Shown: positions 1 to 9,761, counted from the stretch's first letter. The stretch is DNA of 9,761 nt from a virus (IMGVR_UViG_2698536369_000012:1-9761), one strand, 5' to 3'. Numbers and translations: made by a program. The notes: a model not told the origin generated them from the letters alone.

Positions 1-134
1 GCAATGGCCAGCTCTTCGTCACGCATGTTCTGCATGATGATGCGACGGCGGCGGTAAGCCGGGTCCGCCAGATTCTGCGGATCTTCATCCGGCAGGCGAC
101 GCAGGGTCATCTGCGGATTCACTTCATGCTTCGG
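1..134 (-). pseudogene. 3' internal fragment of a lambda-type major capsid protein E gene; runs off the left edge, 5' side cut by an in-frame TAG at 135-137
   Basis: Minus-strand translation of 1-134 gives PKHEVNPQMTLRRLPDEDPQNLADPAYRRRRIIMQNMRDEELAIA, which I recognise as an internal segment of phage lambda gpE. The next upstream codon (plus 135-137) is a stop, and sequence beyond it is AT-rich and unrelated. Confidence 0.7.
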
Positions 135-213
135 CTACATGAGTCAAATATGAAAGGATGTGAATGAATTTACTTGATAAAACATCATCAAATCGACATT
201 ATTCCTCCTTAAT

Positions 214-237
214 GCAATACAGCGTGCAATACAGCGT
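214..237. repeat. Perfect tandem direct repeat GCAATACAGCGT x2 upstream of the nuclease-domain gene
   Basis: Read directly: gcaatacagcgt at 214-225 and again at 226-237. Confidence 0.6.
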
Positions 238-240
238 GAA

Positions 241-283
241 GTGACATAAATCTGTTCATAGATTCAAGGTGTATAAATATTTA
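241..283 (+). promoter_or_regulatory. Putative sigma70-type promoter region for the 318-1190 gene
   Basis: AT-rich stretch with GTGACA (241-246) and TATAAAT (272-278) about 40 nt upstream of the start; exact -35/-10 spacing is not canonical, so this is tentative. Confidence 0.25.
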
Positions 284-317
284 ACCGTTACTCTGATGAT
301 TGGAACGAGGCTGCACA

Positions 318-1190
318 ATGACTAAAAACACTGGCAGAGATTATGAGGAATTTGTTGGGGCGATTCATCAAAGCTTGATACAAGCTGAGAAAATTTCTCA
401 CTTGAAAAACATCACCGTTGAAGTAAACAAAAAAATCGTAGATAAAAACGGCATAACTAGGCAATTCGATGTGTATTGGGAATTTAACTTAGGAGGTTAT
501 GAATATAAGACCGTAATCGAATGCAAAGACTACGCTTCAAGTGTAAGCATCGAGAAAATTGACGCATTCATCGGAAAAACAGCAGATATTCCCGGCCTAA
601 GACTAATTTATGCAACCAAAACAGGGTATCAAAGTGGGGCTCAAAAAAAAGCCGAACAATATAAAATTGACCTTCTAATAGTTCGTGAAGCTGATAACGA
701 AGACTGGCGCGCGCCAGATGGAACACCACTTATCAAAACTATTCAATTGAATATCGTCGCGATAACTCCCCCCAGAATAACTGCATTCTCACCAATGATA
801 GATGCAAGCTGGCTTGAGTCGCAAAAAAATTTAAACATAGATGATTTAAATTCAAGGTTCAGTCGACTACTTAACAACCAAATATTCATCGTTGATAATA
901 CTACCCACGACAAGTATTCTCTCTGCGACTTAGAAAACTCCTTATCCGCGAGAGTACCTAACATCCAATATGGTGCAGGTACTTACAAAGAAGAGCTAAC
1001 CGACGCTTATTTAGAGTTAGAAAATGGTGATTTAAGATTAAAGCTGAGAGGTTACTCACTTAATTACACATATAACAAACCGGCAGAGACAATTTCTACA
1101 ATTGACTATTCAAAAGAGTTATTGGGAATTGTTCAAAACTATACCTCTGGCGCTAAGAAAATGGTTTTCAAAGACGGAATTATAAAGTAA
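318..1190 (+). CDS. Mrr-like PD-(D/E)xK restriction-endonuclease-domain protein with an uncharacterised C-terminal domain (~290 aa); candidate defence or restriction gene
   Basis: ORF track 300-1190. The first ATG is at 318 with GAGG at 307-310 (7-nt spacing); the track's first codon at 300 is TTG. The N-terminal ~120 aa carry the Mrr catalytic-domain pattern (DYEEFV ... FDVYWEF ... VIECKDY ... GLRLIYATKTGYQSGA ... IDLLIV), i.e. a D...E.K nuclease core. Residues ~125-290 match nothing I recognise. The gene is markedly AT-rich compared with its flanks. Confidence 0.75.
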   Translation: MTKNTGRDYEEFVGAIHQSLIQAEKISHLKNITVEVNKKIVDKNGITRQFDVYWEFNLGGYEYKTVIECKDYASSVSIEKIDAFIGKTADIPGLRLIYATKTGYQSGAQKKAEQYKIDLLIVREADNEDWRAPDGTPLIKTIQLNIVAITPPRITAFSPMIDASWLESQKNLNIDDLNSRFSRLLNNQIFIVDNTTHDKYSLCDLENSLSARVPNIQYGAGTYKEELTDAYLELENGDLRLKLRGYSLNYTYNKPAETISTIDYSKELLGIVQNYTSGAKKMVFKDGIIK

Positions 1191-1247
1191 CAGCATATCA
1201 TTCGAAGTGATTTCCTAATCTAGTGATAAGTCGTTCAATATAAAGAT

Positions 1248-1285
1248 GCGGCCCTTAGCAGGGCCCATTTCACTTTCCTCTCTTC
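1248..1285 (+). terminator. Possible intrinsic terminator downstream of the 318-1190 gene
   Basis: GC stem GGCCC (1250-1254) / GGGCC (1261-1265) with a 6-nt loop, followed by a T-rich tract catttcactttcctctcttc. Confidence 0.35.
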
Positions 1286-1468
1286 GATTAAATCACGAAT
1301 TAAATCACAGCGAACTCAGTTTACAGTCTCAGTATATTTTTTAAACCTATGTTCATTTTCTGCCAATCTGCATTTCATATAATCCGCCCAGCATTTGAAA
1401 AGTGCTTCATCAGTGCCTAGGTAAGCATATAAATATCCCTTAAGAGCTTGGTCAGTAAGCACACTCTC

Positions 1469-1954
1469 CTAATCCCAGTCCACAATGAATTGACGGAAAA
1501 AACCGAATGATTTTGCCGGATCCACATTCCTCCATGTTCCCACCACGATACCAAACACCGGAATCTTAAACGTTACCATTATAGGAAAATCTTCATACCC
1601 AACTTGCTCGATAACTTCTTCTGGTTGTCTTAAACCTGTAGAGATGATACTTCCCTGATAAATTGCTCACCCTCCGGCCAGATGCGCATACCACATTTTG
1701 TCTTCGACATAGATCCACGCAGAAATGATTGCGCCCCCGATACGGCTCTTTCCATAAACTAACAAAACGGGATTCACCTGAGCGGTTGTGTTCGGTACGC
1801 CACAAAACGCATAGGATGCCTTGTAATCCGCATTCTGCTTACTCAATAGCTCACCAGCAGGGCGCATAAGGCTGTTGCGATAGTGCAGAAGTAGGCCACG
1901 ACCATGAAGCGAAGCCAGCGGCGCGTTATTGTCTACTTTAGTGTAGAGCCTGAT
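1469..1954 (-). pseudogene. Decayed gene of unknown family: ~160-codon reading frame with an internal in-frame TGA and no start codon at its 5' end
   Basis: Minus-strand frame translates as IRLYTKVDNNAPLASLHGRGLLLHYRNSLMRPAGELLSKQNADYKASYAFCGVPNTTAQVNPVLLVYGKSRIGGAIISAWIYVEDKMWYAHLAGG, then TGA at plus 1667-1669, then the same frame continues AIYQGSIISTGLRQPEEVIEQVGYEDFPIMVTFKIPVFGIVVGTWRNVDPAKSFGFFRQFIVDWD to a stop at 1469-1471. The track shows only the 66-aa piece (1667-1867). Confidence 0.4.
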
Positions 1955-2015
1955 TCAACGCAGGGGTGAGAGTTTTTTCTGGTGACAGACCGCGACAGAC
2001 GGCAACAAAACCAGA

Positions 2016-2070
2016 GAAAGGAAACGACACTGTCCAAAAAACACGTTTTCAGCATCTGTTGTTTCCTTTC
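2016..2070. repeat. Long inverted repeat: 14-bp arms (one mismatch) around a 27-nt loop, T-rich on both flanks
   Basis: gaaaggaaacgaca (2016-2029) pairs with tgttgtttcctttc (2057-2070); followed by tttttag on plus, and by a T-rich run on the minus-strand side as well. Confidence 0.5.
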
Positions 2071-2235
2071 TTTTTAGTGGGTGTTTCTAATAAAAACATT
2101 AAGTTACGGCGAAGAAGAACGGAAACGCTTTAAACCGGAAAATTTTCATAAATAGCAAAAAACTGCGCGCCTGACGCCCCGTAGTCTGCCGGATTGCCGG
2201 AAAGGACCCGCCAGCCAGAGCGGGCCCTAATTTCA

Positions 2236-2619
2236 TCAACCAATCAGCTTATAGCGACCATCCCGTGCATTGCGGCGTACACGCTCAATCTTGAGGCATA
2301 GCGCCGCATCTGGCTTTTTTGGGACAGGTACGCGGCAATATTCAGAAGCGCGAGGAATATTATTTATCCAGTCGATCACTTCACTTAAATACCAGGCCTT
2401 ACGCCCTTCCGTAACCTGCACACGCTCCGGGAACTCTCCACTAGCCTCAAGGTTTAGCAGTGTACGACGACTCAGGGTTGTAATTTCCATCACCTGATTC
2501 ATATCAACAAGGCGCTCGCTTAAACACATTTTGTCAGCGATAGCTTTTAATTCCTCTACAGCTGGATTCGGGTACATCATTTCGGCAATTGGCTTAAGGT
2601 CATTGTAATCATTCTGCAT
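2236..2619 (-). CDS. AlpA/Xis-type (MerR-like) helix-turn-helix DNA-binding protein, 127 aa, with N- and C-terminal extensions
   Basis: Central segment VMEITTLSRRTLLNLEASGEFPERVQVTEGRKAWYLSEVIDWI fits the AlpA/excisionase pattern (ITxLSRxTL ... G.FP ... W..SEV..WI). Strong RBS AGGGGGA 4 nt before the ATG, 11 nt after the stop of the decoration gene. Confidence 0.7.
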   Translation of the reverse strand: MQNDYNDLKPIAEMMYPNPAVEELKAIADKMCLSERLVDMNQVMEITTLSRRTLLNLEASGEFPERVQVTEGRKAWYLSEVIDWINNIPRASEYCRVPVPKKPDAALCLKIERVRRNARDGRYKLIG

Positions 2620-2630
2620 TGTATCCCCCT

Positions 2631-2972
2631 TTACACACGAGCCAGCGGCTGAACAGAAATACCTGAGCCAACAAACGCTGCAACCTTTACTGACAGTTCT
2701 TTAACAGACTCAGGCCAGTTCAGAGCATCAACATTTAAGACACCTGTCTTATAGACCTGAGCCTGTGTTTTTTTCGCGGTGTCGATTTGTACAGCGGAAA
2801 CATAAACCGCTTTACCTACGCTCGAACCATCCCATACCACCAGTGCACCTGTTGCATCTTCCTGCATCAGTGGCGTAAATGCAGGAATTACCCCTTTATT
2901 AGCTGAAAATATCCCCAGCGTAGTCACCAGTGCTTCAGTGCCAGCCATGAGTTCAGTGTAATGAGTAGCCAT
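2631..2972 (-). CDS. Lambda gpD-type head decoration protein homologue (113 aa)
   Basis: PAFTPLMQEDATGALVVWDG ... YKTGVLNVDALNWPE ... AAFVGSGISV parallels lambda gpD as I recall it ([20 protein letters not shown] ... YKSGTFRYEDVLWPE ... TAFAGTAISIV). Its RBS GGGGGAG overlaps the stop codon of the upstream capsid gene. Confidence 0.8.
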   Translation of the reverse strand: MATHYTELMAGTEALVTTLGIFSANKGVIPAFTPLMQEDATGALVVWDGSSVGKAVYVSAVQIDTAKKTQAQVYKTGVLNVDALNWPESVKELSVKVAAFVGSGISVQPLARV

Positions 2973-2981
2973 TGCTCCCCC

Positions 2982-4022
2982 TTAGCCAATGCGAACGGTA
3001 ACAAAACGATTGATGCGGGCCGGTATTGGCTGTGGTGCTGAATGTGTCTGCACATATTCAATAGCCGGATCACCAGGCACAATATAGTTTTTCGGCGCAA
3101 GTTCGGCTTTAGTCAGCCCCATTCGGATTAGCTCCGGATCCTGAATACCGCCATAGGCGACAATCCCCTGAAGAGCCGTATTGCCAAGCACCATCAAATC
3201 AGGATCAAGGAAATGTTTTTCAGTTCCGTCCTCGTCGGTATAACGCCCGCTGTATACAACAATCGCAACATCGCCCATATACCCTTTAAAACTCACCGAA
3301 TCACCAAGGTCTTTGAGGGCCGTTTCCAGTTCGGAATTAGAACCACGACGGGTATCCAGAGCCTCTTTTATCGCTCTGAATGAACGGTATTTCTTCCATA
3401 CATTACCGCCCATAATGATGATATTAGTGACGCCCTCACTAAATTCTGCGTAGCTCTCAATATCATCATTTGGATCAAAAGTTTCTTTATCCTTACCTGA
3501 CCACTCAGCACCGCCAAACTGAGTGATGATATTTTGTGGTTTAATATTCCAGTCCAGCTCATAACGTTCAATACCATCGCCCTCAATGATATTTTTCCCC
3601 GTTGTGATTGCCTGAACGGCAAGCCATTCAATACGTGCACGAATAGCTTTAGCCTGATTTACAATCGCCTGTTTAACTTTAATATTACGCGCTCCAAAAG
3701 CATTGTATTGCTCAGGTGATACACCAGCAGGGCGCACAGCTAACTTATTTGGATCAATGCTGCTTTTCGGCTTCATATAGCCTGGACGAATTGTTTTTGA
3801 TTCGTACCCTTCGTCACGTGAAACTTTACTACCCACCATAGGAGAACAAAACGCTGCAATTGGGATATTTGGATCGTCGATTGTATCAAGAATAATATCG
3901 CGCGATTCAAACATTACCGAGCGAGTAAAAAACAAACTGGTAAACAACGCATTTAGTTGTTTTTGTACATCTACAGCATTAACCACCTGTACAAGCTGGG
4001 TAGGCGAATATAAATCAACCAT
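2982..4022 (-). CDS. Lambda gpE-type major capsid protein, full length (~346 aa), divergent from lambda
   Basis: Blocks GGAEWSGKDKETFDPNDDIESYA and TRRGSNSELETALKDLGDSVSFKGYMGDVAIVVYSGRY closely match recalled lambda gpE (GGTEWSKRDKSTYDPTDDIEAYA; TRRGSNSELETAVKDLGKAVSYKGMYGDVAIVVYSGQY). The track ORF runs to 4196, but the start is most likely ATG at 4022 (MVDLYSPTQL...), which has GAGG 6 nt upstream and gives a lambda-E-like length; ATG at 4028 is an alternative. Confidence 0.85.
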   Translation of the reverse strand: MVDLYSPTQLVQVVNAVDVQKQLNALFTSLFFTRSVMFESRDIILDTIDDPNIPIAAFCSPMVGSKVSRDEGYESKTIRPGYMKPKSSIDPNKLAVRPAGVSPEQYNAFGARNIKVKQAIVNQAKAIRARIEWLAVQAITTGKNIIEGDGIERYELDWNIKPQNIITQFGGAEWSGKDKETFDPNDDIESYAEFSEGVTNIIIMGGNVWKKYRSFRAIKEALDTRRGSNSELETALKDLGDSVSFKGYMGDVAIVVYSGRYTDEDGTEKHFLDPDLMVLGNTALQGIVAYGGIQDPELIRMGLTKAELAPKNYIVPGDPAIEYVQTHSAPQPIPARINRFVTVRIG

Positions 4023-4196
4023 ACGCATCCTCTTTGCATTCATTAAAAATAATTGTGGATATATGCTATCACCGATATTTGTCATGCGAATACATGCAAC
4101 CGAGTGCAATGTTGTATAAAGTTTTGGGATGACAACTTCAGCGCGGATAATTAGTGTTAATATCTTCACTCCCTTTGGTCTGGATTTATGTAGCAT

Positions 4197-4230
4197 GCCG
4201 GAAAATTTATTTTTTTCCGGCCTTTTTTAT
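4197..4230. terminator. Strong hairpin between the SSB and capsid genes; T-tract lies on the plus-strand side, so function for the minus-strand operon is uncertain
   Basis: gccggaaaa (4197-4205) / ttttccggc (4213-4221), a perfect 9-bp stem with 7-nt loop, followed on plus by cttttttat. May act bidirectionally or as an RNA structural element. Confidence 0.3.
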
Positions 4231-4239
4231 TGGCAATAT

Positions 4240-4689
4240 TTAAAACGGAATATCATCTCCCCATTGCTCATTATCTCCCACTGGTGGATGGCTTCCTTGC
4301 TGATCTGCCTGTTGTTTTGCTCTGTTCAGTGCGTCAGTAGCCTGACCCTGTTGATCTTTTTTGCCGCCCGGTCGCACAGTTCGCGCACTGATTACGCTGT
4401 CTGCGATAACCTGCCACCCCTGCCGCGTTTCACCGTTCTGTCCAGTCCACTGGCTCACCTGCATATTACCCGCCACGCTCAGGAGTTCGCCTTTGTGATG
4501 CTTTGCCAGCGCGTCGGCTTGTCTGCCAAACGCCAGCACAGATAACCACATCGTCGCCGTTCCGTCATCTGCCTGGCTGCATGGCAAAGATACCGCCATC
4601 CGTGCCAGTGTCATGGGTGTTCCCTTGCTGGTATGTTTTACCTGTGGGTCGTCCACCAGCCGCCCGTAAGCTGCTATTTGCGCCGTCAT
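4240..4689 (-). CDS. ssb: Single-stranded DNA-binding protein (SSB), 149 aa
   Basis: OB-fold-like N-terminal region, a Gly/Gln-rich linker (QQGQATDALNRAKQQADQQG) and the hallmark acidic C-terminal tail ending DDIPF. Confidence 0.8.
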   Translation of the reverse strand: MTAQIAAYGRLVDDPQVKHTSKGTPMTLARMAVSLPCSQADDGTATMWLSVLAFGRQADALAKHHKGELLSVAGNMQVSQWTGQNGETRQGWQVIADSVISARTVRPGGKKDQQGQATDALNRAKQQADQQGSHPPVGDNEQWGDDIPF

Positions 4690-4700
4690 GCTGCCTGCTC

Positions 4701-4943
4701 TCAGGACTTAATATTGATGGTTGTCACTTCCTCCGCTTCGGCAATCTCCCGTTCGGTCAGCGTGGCAAAGTTTGCAGCCGCCGTTGTCATGAATGCGCTT
4801 ATCAGTTCGGGATGTGCTTTCGCGTATCCTTCCCCGGCGTTGCGGTCTATTGCCTTAATCGCCACCCTTAGCCAGTGTTCAGCCATATCAAGGGCGCGGT
4901 AATGTGGCTTTATATGTTTGTTCAGTTTTCCTGATGTGTGCAT
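4701..4943 (-). CDS. Hypothetical small protein (80 aa), first gene downstream of the iteron region
   Basis: ORF track; GAGGGGG upstream of the ATG; stop lies 11 nt before the SSB start. No recognisable motif. Confidence 0.45.
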   Translation of the reverse strand: MHTSGKLNKHIKPHYRALDMAEHWLRVAIKAIDRNAGEGYAKAHPELISAFMTTAAANFATLTEREIAEAEEVTTINIKS

Positions 4944-4990
4944 TTTTATTTTTACCCCCTCGTTTAAAAAGTTTTTTGTGCACCACCACC

Positions 4991-5218
4991 TTGTCTACCT
5001 TGTCTACCTGATTAGTTATCAGGCCAGTAATGGCGCGGGTTTCAGGGAGGTAGACAGCCCCAAATAGCTGTCTACCTCATCTCTACCCGTCTCCTTACCT
5101 GTCTACAAAAATGGGTAGATAAGGTAGATAACAGGTAGACAGTGAAAAATAGTTATCTACCTGCATTAATACATTGAAATAAAAGTATTTTATTTCAGTC
5201 AGGTAGACAAGGTAGATA
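4991..5218. repeat. Iteron array: at least 12 copies of the octamer GGTAGA(C/T)A / TGTCTACC in both orientations, with an AT-rich spacer; putative replication origin
   Basis: Copies read at 4991-4999, 5000-5008, 5049-5056, 5069-5076, 5080-5088 (variant), 5100-5107, 5114-5121, 5123-5130, 5134-5141, 5153-5161, 5202-5209 and 5211-5218. AT-rich block at 5161-5200. Sits immediately 3' of the primase-helicase gene. Confidence 0.7.
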
Positions 5219-5232
5219 ACCATTGCCATTTT

Positions 5233-6984
5233 TTATAAAAACGCATCGCAATCATCAGTAGTCGTTGCGTTGGTCTGCGTGACTCCCTTAACTTTTCGCG
5301 TAATATATTCATATCCGTAAACTTTCGCCGCTGACCTCATAGCCTTTCCGAACTCATTCACGCTCAAACATTTCCCCTTTCCTGTATATGCCATGAAGGC
5401 CATATAGACACGGTAAAGGCTGTTTCTGGTCGTGTACTTCACGGTGTCACCACCACCGCCCATCATTAGCCCACGAGCTTCCTCCAGAAACTCCAGCGCC
5501 GCGCAAAGCTCAACAACCGGATCCGTTTGCTGCTTTATTGCCAGAGCTTCATCACCGTCACGCTGTTCCAGTAATAAAGCCCGTGCCTTTTCAGGGTCAG
5601 CAAAATTAGCCAGCAAGCGGCGGATAATTACGGGGATTTCTGCCGCTATCTTTTCCGGTAATTCCTTGTCTTTTTCGTCCTCCCTTACAATGTTGTCGAA
5701 CCGGAAAATCACCCGACGGCGTGACACACCTCCGGCCCGTTCGGTAAAGATCATCGGGTCGTTATTGGTTGCCAGTACCACCGCCCTTATTATCGTCGTG
5801 AATCGCTTCTCATATTTCGGGTTAATTTCAACGGGATCGCCTCCCGTGATTTTCTTGATGCCCGTGCCTTCCCCCGTATATTTCGGCTGATCGGCAAGGA
5901 CGATAAGACGACTCCCGACAACCTGCGCGCGCCCTCCTGCATCATCGAGTGATGTCATCTCTGCGCTTACGGTGTTCTGTTTGCCAGCAAGCAGGGTGGC
6001 AATATGGGTAAATGTACTCTTACCGCTTCCCCCGTCTCCGGTGGCCTCAATGAACATCTGCCAGTCGTAGCGGTTCGCCATAATCATGTATAACGCGGCA
6101 CATATACGCATCATCTTGCGCGGGTCTTTTCCTGCAGCATGTTCAAGCCATTTATGGAAATTTGGCGCATTATCGCGGATGTTTTCCCCTGCTACTGGTG
6201 GCGTGTACTCAATGCCATTGTGCGTGGTGCTCCAGTGCTCCGGTGAGTGCGGAGAAAAATCCCCCGTTTTCAGGTTAAGCACACCATTAGTGAACGGTAG
6301 TAAATCACCGGACGGCTCCCCCATGGGGTCGGCAATAACTTTTAACGCTTCCACGGCGTTATTGATTACACGTTTGCTGAACGTGGCCCTGTGCTCTGAA
6401 TAGATCGCCACCATTTCGCGGCTCAGCTCCATTGTGCTGACCGGACACCATACCCCGCCGCGCCATACGTGGACGATTTCACTTTCTGCATGAACACACA
6501 CACCATCAAAGCGATCGGCAAGTAGTTGTGCACGTTCACTGTCTGCCATCTGTGAAAGTTGCGCCTTTTGCTTCGTCGGAAGATTAAGCACCAGACTTTC
6601 CCCACGCTCGCATTCCTCTTTGAGTCGCGGCAACTGGTCGGATAAATCCACGGGGCTGGTGTCAGTAATCCCCGCGTATTCGTGTACGGTCTTCACTCCA
6701 GCCACAGCCAGTAACGTAACAATCTGCGTCATGCTGTGCTCTGTGATATGTCCTGCGCGGTAAACACGCACACACTGACGATCTTCATCAATGATCCGGT
6801 AATCGATGATGTTTTTCAGTTGCTCATCAGCCAGCACGACAGGCGGCACATCGTCGGCGGCAATATGTTTACCCGCCCATTCCTGCCACTCTTTCGCATG
6901 GCTCCACGCATCACTACCTGCAAAGATGATTACCTCTGTCAGTCTGTCGCGTGGCTGTTTTTTTAAGTTCGGTGCCAGTTTCAT
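5233..6984 (-). CDS. Replication primase-helicase, P4-alpha/D5-type with SF3 helicase domain (583 aa)
   Basis: Walker A GDGGSGKST, Walker B-like RLIVLADQP and motif C VVLATNND are in the order typical of D5/P4-alpha SF3 NTPases. RBS AGGGG lies 7 nt upstream. The start overlaps the upstream gene's stop (ATGA). Confidence 0.85.
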   Translation of the reverse strand: MKLAPNLKKQPRDRLTEVIIFAGSDAWSHAKEWQEWAGKHIAADDVPPVVLADEQLKNIIDYRIIDEDRQCVRVYRAGHITEHSMTQIVTLLAVAGVKTVHEYAGITDTSPVDLSDQLPRLKEECERGESLVLNLPTKQKAQLSQMADSERAQLLADRFDGVCVHAESEIVHVWRGGVWCPVSTMELSREMVAIYSEHRATFSKRVINNAVEALKVIADPMGEPSGDLLPFTNGVLNLKTGDFSPHSPEHWSTTHNGIEYTPPVAGENIRDNAPNFHKWLEHAAGKDPRKMMRICAALYMIMANRYDWQMFIEATGDGGSGKSTFTHIATLLAGKQNTVSAEMTSLDDAGGRAQVVGSRLIVLADQPKYTGEGTGIKKITGGDPVEINPKYEKRFTTIIRAVVLATNNDPMIFTERAGGVSRRRVIFRFDNIVREDEKDKELPEKIAAEIPVIIRRLLANFADPEKARALLLEQRDGDEALAIKQQTDPVVELCAALEFLEEARGLMMGGGGDTVKYTTRNSLYRVYMAFMAYTGKGKCLSVNEFGKAMRSAAKVYGYEYITRKVKGVTQTNATTTDDCDAFL

Positions 6985-7280
6985 TTTTTGCCCCTGAATG
7001 CGTTAATCATGCTTTTCATTTTCTGGATGTTTCCCCGCGCTTTTTCCCTGCTGGTGGGCTTACTGCGGGGTGCGGCATATACCAGGGAAAAATCACGCCG
7101 GAACTGATAAACAGGCATCACGCAGTCATAGCTATACCCCTCACGGCGGTAAGTGATGCGCCGTTCTGCCACGCCTTTAATCTTTACCGTGCCGCCGTAT
7201 TTATCGCGGTAAATATCGCCGTTCATAAATTCAGGCCGAGCGGGGCCGCTGGCAATAAAGCCAGAATTTTTCATTTCCAT
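6981..7280 (-). CDS. Hypothetical basic protein (99 aa), translationally coupled to the primase-helicase
   Basis: ORF track; GAGGAA RBS; 4-nt stop/start overlap with the primase gene. Function not recognised. Confidence 0.55.
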   Translation of the reverse strand: MEMKNSGFIASGPARPEFMNGDIYRDKYGGTVKIKGVAERRITYRREGYSYDCVMPVYQFRRDFSLVYAAPRSKPTSREKARGNIQKMKSMINAFRGKK

Positions 7281-7297
7281 ATTATTTATTCCTCGAC

Positions 7298-7519
7298 TTA
7301 ACTCGACTTATTTGATAGCAGGGCACTATTTATTGCGTCATTGAGTTTTTCTGCTGATTCATCAATAAGTGACAACAGGCCATAAGCAATATTTGCATCT
7401 TCATTGTCATTTATGCAATCAAGCCACATATTTAATATTGCTTTTGCTGAATTATTTAAAGTTAATGAACTTTCTGTACATGCTAACAATTTAAAAAAGA
7501 CTTGCCGTTCTGTATTCAT
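7298..7519 (-). CDS. Hypothetical small protein (73 aa), AT-rich
   Basis: ORF track; GGGGGA RBS 4 nt upstream; start is directly adjacent to the upstream gene's stop. Confidence 0.5.
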   Translation of the reverse strand: MNTERQVFFKLLACTESSLTLNNSAKAILNMWLDCINDNEDANIAYGLLSLIDESAEKLNDAINSALLSNKSS

Positions 7520-7711
7520 TTAATCCCCCAGCAGCTTACTTTCTTCCTCAATCAAAAAACTAGCGACACTTCCCGAAAGACGCGCCAGTAGGCTCGCCAG
7601 TGCGGATATATCAGCATCTGTAATTTTGTTCGGGTATACCTCAAGAAGGCGGCAAATAATTTCTGTCTGGTGCGCACGTTCAGCGGCTTCGTGTAATGTA
7701 ATTTCCTGCAT
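7520..7711 (-). CDS. Hypothetical small protein (63 aa)
   Basis: ORF track; AGAGGTG RBS; its start overlaps the upstream gene's stop by 1 nt (TAATG). Confidence 0.5.
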   Translation of the reverse strand: MQEITLHEAAERAHQTEIICRLLEVYPNKITDADISALASLLARLSGSVASFLIEEESKLLGD

Positions 7712-7896
7712 TAATGCACCTCTTTTAATTCATACACTGCTGAAATAATGACTTGTGATAAGCCATATTCTGATGATTCGCTTCTCACCGCAGCAATAGC
7801 CGTCTGAACATTAACAGCCTTCACATTCTGAGCGATACCAATTGTGTGGCCTAGTGGGTTAACAGCTCGGGCAAATACACGGAAGGTTTTAAGCAT
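7711..7896 (-). CDS. Hypothetical small protein (61 aa), first gene of the minus-strand operon
   Basis: ORF track; GGGAG RBS 5-6 nt upstream of the ATG at 7894-7896. Confidence 0.5.
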   Translation of the reverse strand: MLKTFRVFARAVNPLGHTIGIAQNVKAVNVQTAIAAVRSESSEYGLSQVIISAVYELKEVH

Positions 7897-8177
7897 GACT
7901 CACTCCCTGGCGGATTTTTGCAGCGAATACAGCAACACAACCGGACGGGCAACGGCTACGCGCTTCGCGTTCCGTCCAGGCGGTTACGTGGATGATTTGA
8001 GATTCTCCGGCACTCAGTGCCAGAAAACGCCACACAAAGGCCGTTTGTGTGTGTACAAGGTGTGGTATATGATTTACAGCAACCATAACGGCTCCTAGTT
8101 TACGTTGTTGGTTAGACGCCCCGTATGTGTTCCCAGCACTGCGGGGCGTTGCTCTTTGTATTTCAACAATCCTTTCG

Positions 8178-8255
8178 GTGTGTTTCATGTTATGAGCGCA
8201 TGAAACACACGTCAAGGCTTTTTGTATTTCTTTTTTTGTGTATACTGAAACACAC
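8178..8255. promoter_or_regulatory. Operator-like site set in the divergent intergenic region: perfect 12-bp inverted repeat plus a third half-site overlapping an extended -10 element
   Basis: gtgtgtttcatg (8178-8189), 9-bp spacer, catgaaacacac (8199-8210); a third gaaacacac copy at 8247-8255. TGTG-TATACT (8237-8246) looks like an extended -10 for the 8277 gene. Confidence 0.5.
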
Positions 8256-8276
8256 CGATGATTAGGAGTTTCAGAA

Positions 8277-8582
8277 ATGGCAACGGCTAACAAAAACGCA
8301 AAATCACAACTGACAACTGTCAGAGTCCCACTAGATGTTATGCAAGGGATGGAATCCGTTAAGCTGGACGGTGAAAGCAATGCCGGATTTATCGTAACCG
8401 CCATGCGCGGAGAAATAGCCCGCCGCCAAGCAGAAGGCAGCGGAGAAAATCCCCTTGTGTCGTCACTGGATGCCCTGGCTAAGGTCGAACAAATCGGCAT
8501 CAAAGCAGCCGAGGAGATCGGGCAACTCGTCACCGTCGCGCGTGAAGAACTCCAGCGACGCAAGGTCAAAGAGCATGAATAG
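8277..8582 (+). CDS. Hypothetical protein (101 aa), possibly a small DNA-binding regulator
   Basis: ORF track; AGGAG RBS 8 nt upstream; sits next to the operator-like repeats. N-terminal LTTVRVPLDVMQGM is reminiscent of a ribbon-helix-helix beta strand, but that is weak. Confidence 0.65.
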   Translation: MATANKNAKSQLTTVRVPLDVMQGMESVKLDGESNAGFIVTAMRGEIARRQAEGSGENPLVSSLDALAKVEQIGIKAAEEIGQLVTVAREELQRRKVKEHE

Positions 8583-8639
8583 CCAATATCAGCGCCATAG
8601 TTTGAGGAACGCAGGCGCATTGCTTTACAGGACAGCACC

Positions 8640-8819
8640 ATGAGCGACACAGAATCAACCAAAACACCATCACCAACTCGTAAGAGACGACGCAAAAATA
8701 TAGCGCATGAACATGAATCAGAAAGATTCGCACCTTGTTCGTTTGCTCTTGAGAAATTCCTTAAAGAGCACAGGAAAAAGCTCTCGTTGCAAACCTTGGA
8801 ACGAACCAAATCTGACTGA
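8640..8819 (+). CDS. Possible small basic protein (59 aa), not in the ORF track
   Basis: My own translation from ATG 8640 to TGA 8817-8819: MSDTESTKTPSPTRKRRRKNIAHEHESERFAPCSFALEKFLKEHRKKLSLQTLERTKSD. AGGA lies 7 nt upstream, and a terminator follows. Confidence 0.35.
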   Translation: MSDTESTKTPSPTRKRRRKNIAHEHESERFAPCSFALEKFLKEHRKKLSLQTLERTKSD

Positions 8820-8885
8820 TCACATTGCCCACCAGCCGCAAATGTGGCATTGTTGGTGATGCTTTTGTTTTCCCTTGTTCCCACT

Positions 8886-8916
8886 GGCGACCCTTTTGCG
8901 GTCGCCTTTGTTTTGT
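8886..8916 (+). terminator. Rho-independent terminator between convergent genes
   Basis: ggcgacc (8886-8892) / ggtcgcc (8900-8906), a perfect 7-bp stem with 7-nt loop, followed by tttgttttgt. Confidence 0.6.
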
Positions 8917-9494
8917 CACTGAATGCGGTTACCAAAGTAAAACTCAGGCTGATATTCACGTATCAGCGTTTTTTCTTCTTCCTCCAGCTCACGCTTTTTG
9001 CGCTTACATGCCTGTAGCTCCCTCCCCTTCTCGCTGGCACTTATTTGATATTGCTCTTTACGGCGGGAAAAATCCTGTAATGCACCCCACGGGATACCAT
9101 AAGTCCCCGTTTTTCTGATACCTGGTATCACATTTCTGAATACCCAGTTACTGAAACGATGAGCAAATGTGCCAGGCGTCGTTGCTTTGCGGCTGCGGGC
9201 TATTAGTTTGTAGAAACCTGACTCAGAGATAATTCTCATATTCTGATTTCCTCCTGGGGTGTAAGTTAAATTTACTCCCTTTTCATCATCATCAAGCATC
9301 TGCAACGCCGTACGCGAATTGGTTAGTTCCAGCGCAGCACAAACATCTTTTGCAACAAACCACGGATCGCCGTTCAGATACACCACACGAACGTTCACAC
9401 TATCAAAGCGCAGAACGACGAGATCACGAATATCGCAGAATTTTTTCACTGGACGAGCGTACCCCTTGCCCGTCACGGCAATATTTTTATTCAT
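8916..9494 (-). CDS. Bro-N domain protein (phage antirepressor-like), 192 aa
   Basis: N-terminal ~100 aa (RFDSVNVRVVYLNGDPWFVAKDVCAALELTNSRTALQMLDDDEKG ... ISESGFYKLIARSRKATTPGTFAHRFSNWV) fit the Bro-N / antirepressor N-terminal domain pattern. C-terminal region is charged and coiled-coil-like. Confidence 0.8.
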   Translation of the reverse strand: MNKNIAVTGKGYARPVKKFCDIRDLVVLRFDSVNVRVVYLNGDPWFVAKDVCAALELTNSRTALQMLDDDEKGVNLTYTPGGNQNMRIISESGFYKLIARSRKATTPGTFAHRFSNWVFRNVIPGIRKTGTYGIPWGALQDFSRRKEQYQISASEKGRELQACKRKKRELEEEEKTLIREYQPEFYFGNRIQ

Positions 9495-9513
9495 CGCGTT
9501 TTTACCTTATAGA

Positions 9514-9537
9514 CAAAAAACCCCTCGTGATGAGGGG
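9514..9537 (-). terminator. Rho-independent terminator on the minus strand, downstream of the IS-truncated gene
   Basis: cccctc (9521-9526) / gagggg (9532-9537) with 5-nt loop; on the minus strand it is followed by TTTTTTG (plus 9514-9520). Confidence 0.5.
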
Positions 9538-9543
9538 CATTAT

Positions 9544-9646
9544 TTACTGGTTATTGCTGTTTTGTTTTTCCAGGTTTCCATCCAGGATGCCACTCACCAC
9601 GGATCCATGCCTGAACCTCTGAAAGTCGATACCCTGCAGCACGTTC
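9544..9646 (-). pseudogene. 3' end of a minus-strand gene truncated by the IS insertion
   Basis: Minus-strand frame is open from the IS boundary down to TAA at 9544-9546: NVLQGIDFQRFRHGSVVSGILDGNLEKQNSNNQ. No start codon; the 5' part must lie beyond the IS. Confidence 0.4.
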
Positions 9647-9761
9647 TGAACCGCCCCGGGAATCCTGGAGACTAAACTCCCTGAGAAAGAGGTAAACAGA
9701 ATGACTAAAAATACTCGTTTTTCCCCCGAAGTCCGTCAGAGGGCGATTCGTATGGTTCTGG
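9647..9761 (+). mobile_element. Left end of an IS629-like IS3-family insertion sequence (partial, continues past the window)
   Basis: Terminal sequence TGAACCGCCCCGGGAATCCTGGAGACTAAACTCCCTGAGAAAGAGG matches the IS629/IS3411-type left inverted repeat as I recall it, followed by the orfA start. Confidence 0.8.
9701..9761 (+). CDS. IS3-family transposase OrfA, N-terminal 20 codons (partial)
   Basis: Translation MTKNTRFSPEVRQRAIRMVL matches the N-terminus of IS629-type OrfA; GAGG RBS upstream. Confidence 0.8.
   Translation, partial: MTKNTRFSPEVRQRAIRMVL

Follow-up and report, generated by a model that had tools for sequence, protein, structure and literature searches.

What could explain a short internal piece of a lambda-like capsid gene that ends abruptly against unrelated AT-rich DNA, only about 3 kb from a full-length but divergent gene of the same family? 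This question is posed by the left edge of a 9,761-nt stretch of viral DNA (IMGVR_UViG_2698536369_000012:1-9761; hereafter the window), for which a first-pass annotation had suggested either the insertion of foreign DNA into a lambdoid E gene or illegitimate recombination between a prophage and a satellite carrying an E paralogue. We consider it very likely that window positions 1-136 represent the beginning of the tail fragment that arose when a lambdoid prophage E gene was split by the integrase-mediated insertion of a phage-inducible chromosomal island (PICI) of the helper-embedded kind (HE-PICI), and that the window contains a mosaic copy of this satellite that has been hit by an insertion sequence.

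The minus strand of window 1-136 was identical at 136 of 136 positions to lambda (J02459, 6370-6505; E = 3e-65 by megablast against the phage collection), and the same perfect match was found in about 37 other lambdoid phage records. Lambda gene E occupies J02459 6135-7160, so the match corresponds to E nucleotides 236-371, or codons about 79-124, and represents the 5' part of a C-terminal fragment of the helper major capsid gene that extends past the left window edge. The first mismatch to lambda E fell at position 137, and alignment to lambdoid genomes thus placed the breakpoint at 136/137, two bases further than the end at 134 originally assigned to this lambda-like segment. The minus-strand translation of 1-134 reads PKHEVNPQMTLRRLPDEDPQNLADPAYRRRRIIMQNMRDEELAI and is preceded by an in-frame TAG at 135-137, as the first-pass annotation had also read it; the plus strand of 1-140 ends in ...cttcatgcttcggctacatg. 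The reported AT-richness of the DNA to the right was evident as a drop in GC content from 60% (1-136) to 37% (137-1300), with 47% in the remainder of the window. The reported divergence of the neighbouring E-like gene was equally clear, with about 11 of 45 residues identical to lambda E over the stretch of the fragment, compared to 45 of 45 for the fragment itself.

The closest complete genome over the left end of the window was that of E. coli SCU-316 (locus L001), with 99.5% identity over window 1-2300, and this genome was compared with those of MLI108K3, UID2309220033, FDAARGOS_1268, and EC21Z-147 as a set of five siblings. The late operon of SCU-316 consists of Nu1, A, W, B, C, D, a 246-nt E head, an element of about 11 kb, and a 789-nt E tail, after which FI, Z, U, V, G, T, H, M, L, K, I, and J follow. 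Read in the direction of E, the element starts with a tyrosine integrase, a small AlpA-type helix-turn-helix protein, and a variable zone, continues with Icd-like, DUF4222, D5-type primase, and SSB genes, and ends with an E-like capsid protein, a D-like decoration protein, a 127-aa AlpA-family protein, and a restriction-endonuclease-like cargo gene on the opposite strand. The other four siblings carried different cargo with the same layout and fragment lengths, such that in all five, within a lambdoid late operon that otherwise looked complete, an inserted element of about 10-11 kb was flanked by a 246-nt E head adjoining a 1236-nt tyrosine integrase and alpA, and by a 789-nt E tail adjoining the cargo. 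Metagenome contigs were also found with the identical cargo variant inside E and int at the far end, and one nuclease-carrying metagenome contig of the E-integrated type (L010) was 99.7% identical to the window over 1-7895. The split E genes around these elements agree with the first of the two original suggestions, namely insertion into a lambdoid E gene by a satellite that carries an E paralogue. Extrapolating from the siblings, the far end of the window copy would comprise an integrase, attL, and the E head.

Both ends of the insertion carry the same short sequence. In the sense of E, the integrase-side junction reads ...GGATATGTCAA(G/A)CC(G/C)AAGCA followed directly by CTTAGCATGG..., and the cargo-side junction reads ...TTTGACTCATGTA(G/A)CC(G/C)AAGCA followed by TGA(A/G)GTGAATCC..., with lambda having GGATATGTCAAGCCGAAGCATGAAGTGAATCC at this site. 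The window copy of the block, AGCCGAAGCA, lies at 127-136 on the minus strand (lambda E nucleotides 236-245, codons 79-82), occurs only once in the window, and belongs to a set of variants described by A[A/G]CC[G/C]AAGCA. The short repeat that the first-pass annotation had proposed to look for at 130-140 and at the other end of the inserted block corresponds to the block at 127-136, which in the siblings has its match beside the integrase. The attL and attR copies were identical at 10 of 10 positions in loci L004-L007 and at the last 8 of the 10 in L001, and since the second base of the block differs between the two ends in SCU-316, strand exchange is placed within the last eight bases, CCCAAGCA.

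Joining head and tail at the block in silico produced a 1026-nt ORF of 341 aa without stops in five of five siblings, and the restored E proteins were identical to lambda E at 328-338 of 341 residues. The element is thus an insertion with no replacement sequence in attP, and precise excision gives an intact E in silico; the predicted attB (restored E) is ...GTCAAGCCGAAGCATGAAG... and the predicted attP is ...CATGTAGCCGAAGCACTTAGC... In the integrated state, the E head continues past the block into satellite sequence (...KPKH-LAWLSEAFV-stop), and E falls into two pieces without function, a head of 82 codons and a tail of 259. Judged by its sequence, the insertion is site-specific and mediated by a tyrosine integrase at a 10-bp sequence in E codons about 79-82. 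The second original suggestion, illegitimate recombination, did not hold, as the junction is a tyrosine-integrase att site with a 10-bp block and spaced arm motifs that recurs at the same base in 175 complete genomes.

The satellite end before the att block was CTCATGTA at window 135-140 and at all sibling junctions. This arrangement places an ATG and then an immediate TAG or TAA ahead of the E tail fragment with either synonymous E-codon variant, and because the satellite contributes its terminal TA to this stop codon and the core contributes its first variable base, an in-frame stop always stands ahead of the tail fragment (TAG at 135-137, minus strand, in the window; TAA in siblings with the A variant).

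To estimate how widespread this junction is, a 222-bp query across the integrase-side junction was used with a coverage of at least 80%, since the window's own attR junction was unsuitable for counting: cargo variants cease to agree in its satellite arm after about 17-35 bp, and it was common to only three genomes. The integrase-side junction was present in 175 of 5426 complete E. coli genomes, a 3.2% occupancy of the E site, and in the other 2992 E-bearing genomes all of the matches listed ended either on the junction base or within a few bases before it. These data bear on the notion that the E fragment is debris of a decayed prophage, left by illegitimate recombination or random deletion and only fortuitously close to a satellite. 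Such an origin might be entertained because the window shows one side of the junction and contains an insertion sequence, and because truncated lambdoid remnants are abundant in E. coli, but the breakpoint was identical to the base across independent genomes with differing cargo and chromosomal prophages, it coincides with a 10-bp direct repeat that has an integrase beside its other copy and arm motifs at the published spacing, the fragments rejoin to an intact E, and 175 genomes share the integrase-side junction. We therefore regard prophage debris as extremely improbable, and random prophage decay in particular is refuted by a recurrent, repeat-flanked junction that restores the reading frame. 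An assembly chimera was likewise rejected, and the exact window junction is no artefact, since junctions agreeing with it to the base were found in independent complete genomes as well as in metagenome contigs.

The integrase-mediated insertion corresponds to an arrangement that is already known. Tommasini, Mageeney & Williams (NAR Genom Bioinform 2023; PMC10111431) described the HE-PICIs with the prototype Eco567.11capE, an 11-kb PICI-like satellite that lies in, and is co-oriented with, the lambda-E-like capsid gene of its helper prophage, has its own capsid gene, and shows a 10-bp attL/attR identity block. They reported 201 instances at this site, termed E:Phage_cap_E:80, with sister groups at 13 other late-gene sites, and estimated an occupancy of about 5.4% for all HE-PICI sites (PMC10111431), which is of the same order as the 3.2% observed here for the E site. 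A doubled motif, tgTGTATTGCantgTGTATTGCa, was found only in HE-PICIs, with one copy 81 +/- 2 bp upstream of the attP centre and another 132 +/- 2 bp downstream (PMC10111431). In the window, the satellite-side arm of attR (the P arm; 137-299, minus strand) contains the doubled motif as TGTATTGCACGCTGTATTGC at 214-233 (minus strand) with 0 mismatches to the published motif, compared to matches in 0 of 200 shuffles, and the proximal end of the doubled TGTATTGC motif is 82 bp from the block centre; the five siblings had motif copies at -81/-82 and +133 bp relative to that centre. The order of zones was also that of HE-PICIs (Bro, Replication, Late), with the Integration zone represented in the window only by a 96-nt alpA remnant. 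Based on the att block, the motif spacing, and the zone order, we concluded that the window covers the attR end of an HE-PICI of the E:Phage_cap_E:80 group together with most of this element's body, and that 127-136 is its right-hand attachment junction (attR). As this group was described in 2023 with 201 instances at the site, the window is a further instance and not a discovery.

The window shares with Eco567.11capE the target at about codon 80 of a lambda-E cognate, a length of about 10-11 kb, the 10-bp block, the spacing of the doubled arm motif, the co-orientation with the late operon, and the Bro, replication (D5-type primase, SSB), and late (E-like capsid, cos) zones. It differs in its Mrr_cat nuclease cargo beside attR, in an alpA cut by an IS3-family element, and in a Bro/alpA end that is identical to that of elements targeting the portal gene.

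The satellite extends from window position 137 to about 9646, and most of its genes are co-oriented with E: the E fragment, primase, SSB, E-like, D-like, Bro-N, and alpA-remnant genes are all on the minus strand, and the satellite int, alpA, primase, and capsid genes run in the direction of the helper late operon. The satellite major capsid protein, a lambda E paralogue of 346 aa encoded at 2982-4022 (minus strand), matched Pfam Phage_cap_E (E = 9e-41) and was identical to lambda E at 146 of 349 positions of a global alignment. The full-length E-like gene of the first-pass annotation is thus a genuine member of the family, but the upstream start of the 404-aa ORF first assigned to it is spurious, 2982-4022 being the extent that relatives have in their annotation. 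At the equivalent of the att block (3763-3772), this gene reads AGCCGAAAAG, with 7 of 10 matches, and its surroundings match at 27 of 54 positions. Adjacent to it are a head-decoration protein paralogous to lambda D (2631-2972, minus strand; Pfam HDPD, E = 4.5e-15; 40 of 119 residues identical) and, also in the late zone, a 127-aa AlpA-family helix-turn-helix protein (2236-2619, minus strand; Pfam Phage_AlpA, E = 7.6e-9) whose sole sequence match in the PDB was the AlpA-family protein 8c3t (E = 2e-9). A match of this protein to a solved packaging-redirection (Rpp-type) protein was considered and not found, its only PDB match being an AlpA-family regulator.

The replication zone (4240-7280, minus strand), assigned by Pfam and constant in order in all siblings, consists of SSB (4240-4689), an 80-aa ORF (4701-4943), a D5_N/DUF5906 primase-helicase (5233-6984), and DUF4222 (6981-7280), all on the minus strand. 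The SSB gene is intact in the window and annotated as frameshifted in SCU-316 (L001 24240-24690). The zone of small ORFs and Bro (7298-9494, minus strand), delineated with Pfam, NCBIfam, and the annotation of locus L003, contains ORFs of 73, 63, and 61 aa, an Icd-like protein (7889-8086, minus strand; E = 1.2e-17), a YlcI/YnfO-family protein (8277-8582, plus strand), and a Bro-N protein (8916-9494, minus strand). A 356-aa ORF at 7889-8959 (minus strand) fits a known family, Icd-like, only at its 3' end (7889-8086); given this and the YlcI/YnfO-family gene on the opposite strand, it is probably spurious.

The full head module of capsid-forming PICIs (cfPICIs), made up of portal, protease/scaffold, head-tail connectors, and small terminase, was absent, with no portal, protease, or terS ORF in the window and only the E-like and D-like genes present; terS was found in some siblings. 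A Pfam search of the ten main window ORFs detected neither the Psu/Sid capsid-size module nor the Delta/Ash regulators of P4-like satellites, and an Rfam search of the whole window at gathering thresholds detected no P4 CI/isrK-type RNA. The window has only a D5-type primase, AlpA, and an Icd-like protein in common with P4-like satellites, whereas its cos and the interrupted gene are lambdoid, P4-like satellites having a P2-type helper.

A cos-like packaging site of the satellite, lambda-like in its cosB part, is located at 2005-2210 (minus strand) and was 87% identical to lambda 13-176 and 85% identical to the cos region of the helper prophage in SCU-316. At the position of the 12-nt cosN (about 2165-2176, minus strand), the satellite has GGGCGTCAGGCG, compared to GGGCGGCGACCT in lambda and the SCU-316 helper, a difference of 6 of 12 bases; the lambda cosN was not found in the window with up to two mismatches. 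The cosQ-like and cosB-like flanks of the satellite sequence are kept. A shared cos-like segment in 11capE was noted by Tommasini, Mageeney & Williams 2023 (PMC10111431).

In contrast to its E-type left end, the right end of the window copy resembles elements that target the portal gene. A 3' remnant of alpA, 31 codons and a stop (96 nt; 9551-9646, minus strand), occupies the place that alpA normally has between the Bro zone and the integrase, and is followed by the left end of an IS3-family element (IS1203/IS629-like; 9647-9761, plus strand) that starts with TGAACCGCCCCGG and has its transposase ATG at 9702. This IS end had counterparts of 97-99% identity at more than 23,000 places, spread over 3606 genomes and annotated as IS3 family or IS1203 transposase. 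Satellite matches all stop at 9646, and the break in alpA comes after codon about 54, a position at which none of the complete E. coli genomes in the collection had an IS. The remnant, which ends in ...ERAAGYRLSEVQAWIRGEWHPGWKPGKTKQQ and a stop, was 100% identical to AlpA of L003, a portal-integrated element in E. coli A0 34/86, and differed from AlpA of the E-integrated elements L001, L004, L005, and L010. Segment by segment, the window was about 100% identical to L010 up to about 7900 and, from 7601 to 9646, 99.8-100% identical to L003 in each of the 400-bp segments, with L003 being the sole match among seven sampled loci over 8401-9646. Overall, the window and the portal gene B elements shared 96% nucleotide identity over 2146-9646, 100% over the Bro-N/alpA end, and the same architecture and motif family; the portal-type elements differ in being inserted in B with another attR arm, E being intact in those genomes. 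These comparisons show the window copy to be a recent mosaic of E-targeting and portal-targeting lineages.

Within the complete genomes, the gene adjoining portal-type alpA was a portal-type integrase in 61 of 64 cases, and no other integrase was seen beside it. Portal-type and E-type integrases are 53% identical, sibling E-type integrases are identical to one another at 410 of 411 residues, and the window copy's own integrase would lie beyond 9761, behind the IS. As the alpA remnant is linked to the portal type and the two integrases are only 53% identical, the integration module may not match the E-type attR, and the IS in alpA together with the mosaic right half means that the copy may be unable to excise, and may thus be immobile.

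These observations permit a more drastic version of events, in which the window copy is a dead, non-excisable hybrid of two co-oriented HE-PICIs and 127-136 is a fossil att site. Under this scenario, satellites in portal gene B and in E of the same prophage recombined through their near-identical replication zones with loss of the B tail, C, D, the E head, and the E-type integration module, so that an E-type attR came to be combined with a portal-type int/alpA; alpA was subsequently hit by an IS3-family element, and E can no longer be restored. The scenario draws on the 99.7% identity to E-type L010 over 1-7895 and the 99.8-100% identity to portal-type L003 over 7601-9646, on the portal-type alpA remnant with its 61/64 contiguity with a portal-type integrase, on the IS in alpA, and on the consideration that one crossover between two integrated co-oriented copies suffices. 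A helper occupied by two HE-PICIs, each in a different late gene, is on record, as are many truncated helpers (PMC10111431). However, no complete genome showed such a layout or covered at least 80% of the window, and the exact alpA/IS junction was absent from the metagenome and species-representative contig collections. Furthermore, the Bro zone is highly mosaic in HE-PICIs (PMC10111431), and a second crossover in conserved stretches of alpA/int could have kept the E-type integrase. A dead hybrid is accordingly possible, if doubtful, in our estimation. Recombination between two co-oriented satellites of one prophage would be the simplest single-event origin of the copy; that it deleted B'-C-D-E', so that the capsid genes ahead of an intact tail operon were reduced to the E-like and D-like genes of the satellite, seems to us rather unlikely. 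If true, such a hybrid would indicate a route by which satellites and helpers merge into chimeras, or one for the exchange of integration modules between different late-gene targets.

For the split E gene and its HE-PICI, a cycle can be proposed from work on the prototype. After mitomycin C treatment, the composite of prophage and Eco567.11capE was excised at about 1 h and replicated, and the satellite followed at about 2 h (PMC10111431). Excision yielded the predicted attB and attP and re-created an intact E, as measured by qPCR and read counts, and virions of the prototype could not be recovered by the authors (PMC10111431). According to their model, helper late transcription through the E head would read into the satellite and switch on int and alpA (PMC10111431). 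The helper capsid protein would be made only after departure of the satellite, which would be packaged through its own cos by the helper terminase, with its own E-like and D-like capsid proteins and the helper portal and tails. The E-like and D-like proteins might serve to form small capsids or as a backup for the split E. A parasite of a virus here sits inside the virus's own capsid gene, where helper capsid production would hinge on the satellite leaving first and where helper replication and late transcription could act on the satellite in cis.

Classical PICIs reside in genes of the chromosome, their interaction with the helper being confined to trans, whereas HE-PICIs sit within the helper's own late gene. 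EcCICFT073 of Fillol-Salom et al. (cited in PMC10111431), reportedly a classical gram-negative cos-type PICI, is said to resemble the present element in its int-alpA, primase, and capsid-gene homologues, in a cos for the lambdoid helper terminase, and in accessory or defence genes near the element end. A gene that is split by an integrase-bearing element and restored by timed, precise excision is also found in the skin element in sigK of B. subtilis and the comK prophage of Listeria. Here, in contrast, the split gene is viral, and the proposed timing would serve the inserted parasite and not the host. Regulated gene integrity of the skin/sigK and comK kind was discussed in PMC10111431. As far as the main text of that paper goes, three aspects of the present data extend beyond it: the exchange of defence-type cargo in the slot between cos and attR, the 3.2% of complete E. 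coli genomes with the E-site junction, and the IS-hit mosaic of E-targeting and portal-targeting lineages.

The cargo slot also accounts for the AT-rich DNA that was noticed at the outset. The AT-rich cargo gene (318-1190, plus strand) encodes a two-domain protein of 290 aa (296 aa from a TTG at 300) on the strand opposite to most satellite genes, with an N-terminal PD-(D/E)xK (Mrr_cat) nuclease domain, for which the Mrr_cat match was weak, and an unmatched, beta-rich C-terminal domain. It might be supposed that only this AT-rich block, from 137 to about 1300, was inserted into E and that the E paralogue belongs to a separate neighbouring element, given the sharp drop in GC at 137 and the differences in cargo between similar elements. 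Yet the right edge of the block has no junction repeat, the 10-bp block being single in the window, and an att arm with the doubled motif stands between the junction and the cargo gene. In the siblings, moreover, the E head lies about 10-11 kb away beyond the integrase, and cargo exchange takes place in the slot that cos and the att arm delimit. The odds of this reading are in our view negligible, and the architecture of the siblings refutes an insertion of the AT-rich block by itself. Both the cargo and the E paralogue are in the insertion, as parts of one element and not as separate actors.

The cargo nuclease had no match in PADLOC (v2) or NCBIfam and belongs to a family of proteins of about 290 aa across Enterobacterales in which D51, E68, and K70 are invariant; a relative with 49% identity stands alone in another AlpA-bearing island. 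Its position and fold suggest a defence gene, and the protein may be an undescribed single-gene anti-phage nuclease. The rest of the slot (1191-2004, minus strand) is mostly non-coding or made up of gene remnants, including 1667-1867, which is annotated as a 5'-truncated pseudogene in SCU-316, and the sequence that siblings have in common with the window begins only at about 1570, 1750, or 2005.

Between the satellite cos and the attR arm, content varied among otherwise similar elements (window about 170-2004; L004 12344-13486; L006 4291-6007; L007 4418-5176; L005 4264-5199). With PADLOC, the sibling slots were found to contain a TIR-domain protein with matches to Aga/Thoeris-type TIR models, a DUF262 + HEPN pair (NsnA, E = 2e-59; PD-T4-2), a DUF2971 protein (PDC-S31, E = 6e-26), and an unclassified 311-aa protein. 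With known or candidate anti-phage systems in the siblings, the slot has the predicted character of a defence-type hotspot; the terms defence and restriction are absent from the main text of PMC10111431. It is comparable to the hotspots of P2 and P4 (Rousset et al. 2022, PMC9122126) in being a fixed satellite slot in which unrelated anti-phage genes are exchanged, and differs from them in the satellite family and in its location between cos and attR. Within the variable slot, window 1571-1752 matched L005 5652-5471 in inverted orientation with 89.6% identity, directly adjoining a match in direct orientation from 1749, which indicates a small inverted duplication or rearrangement.
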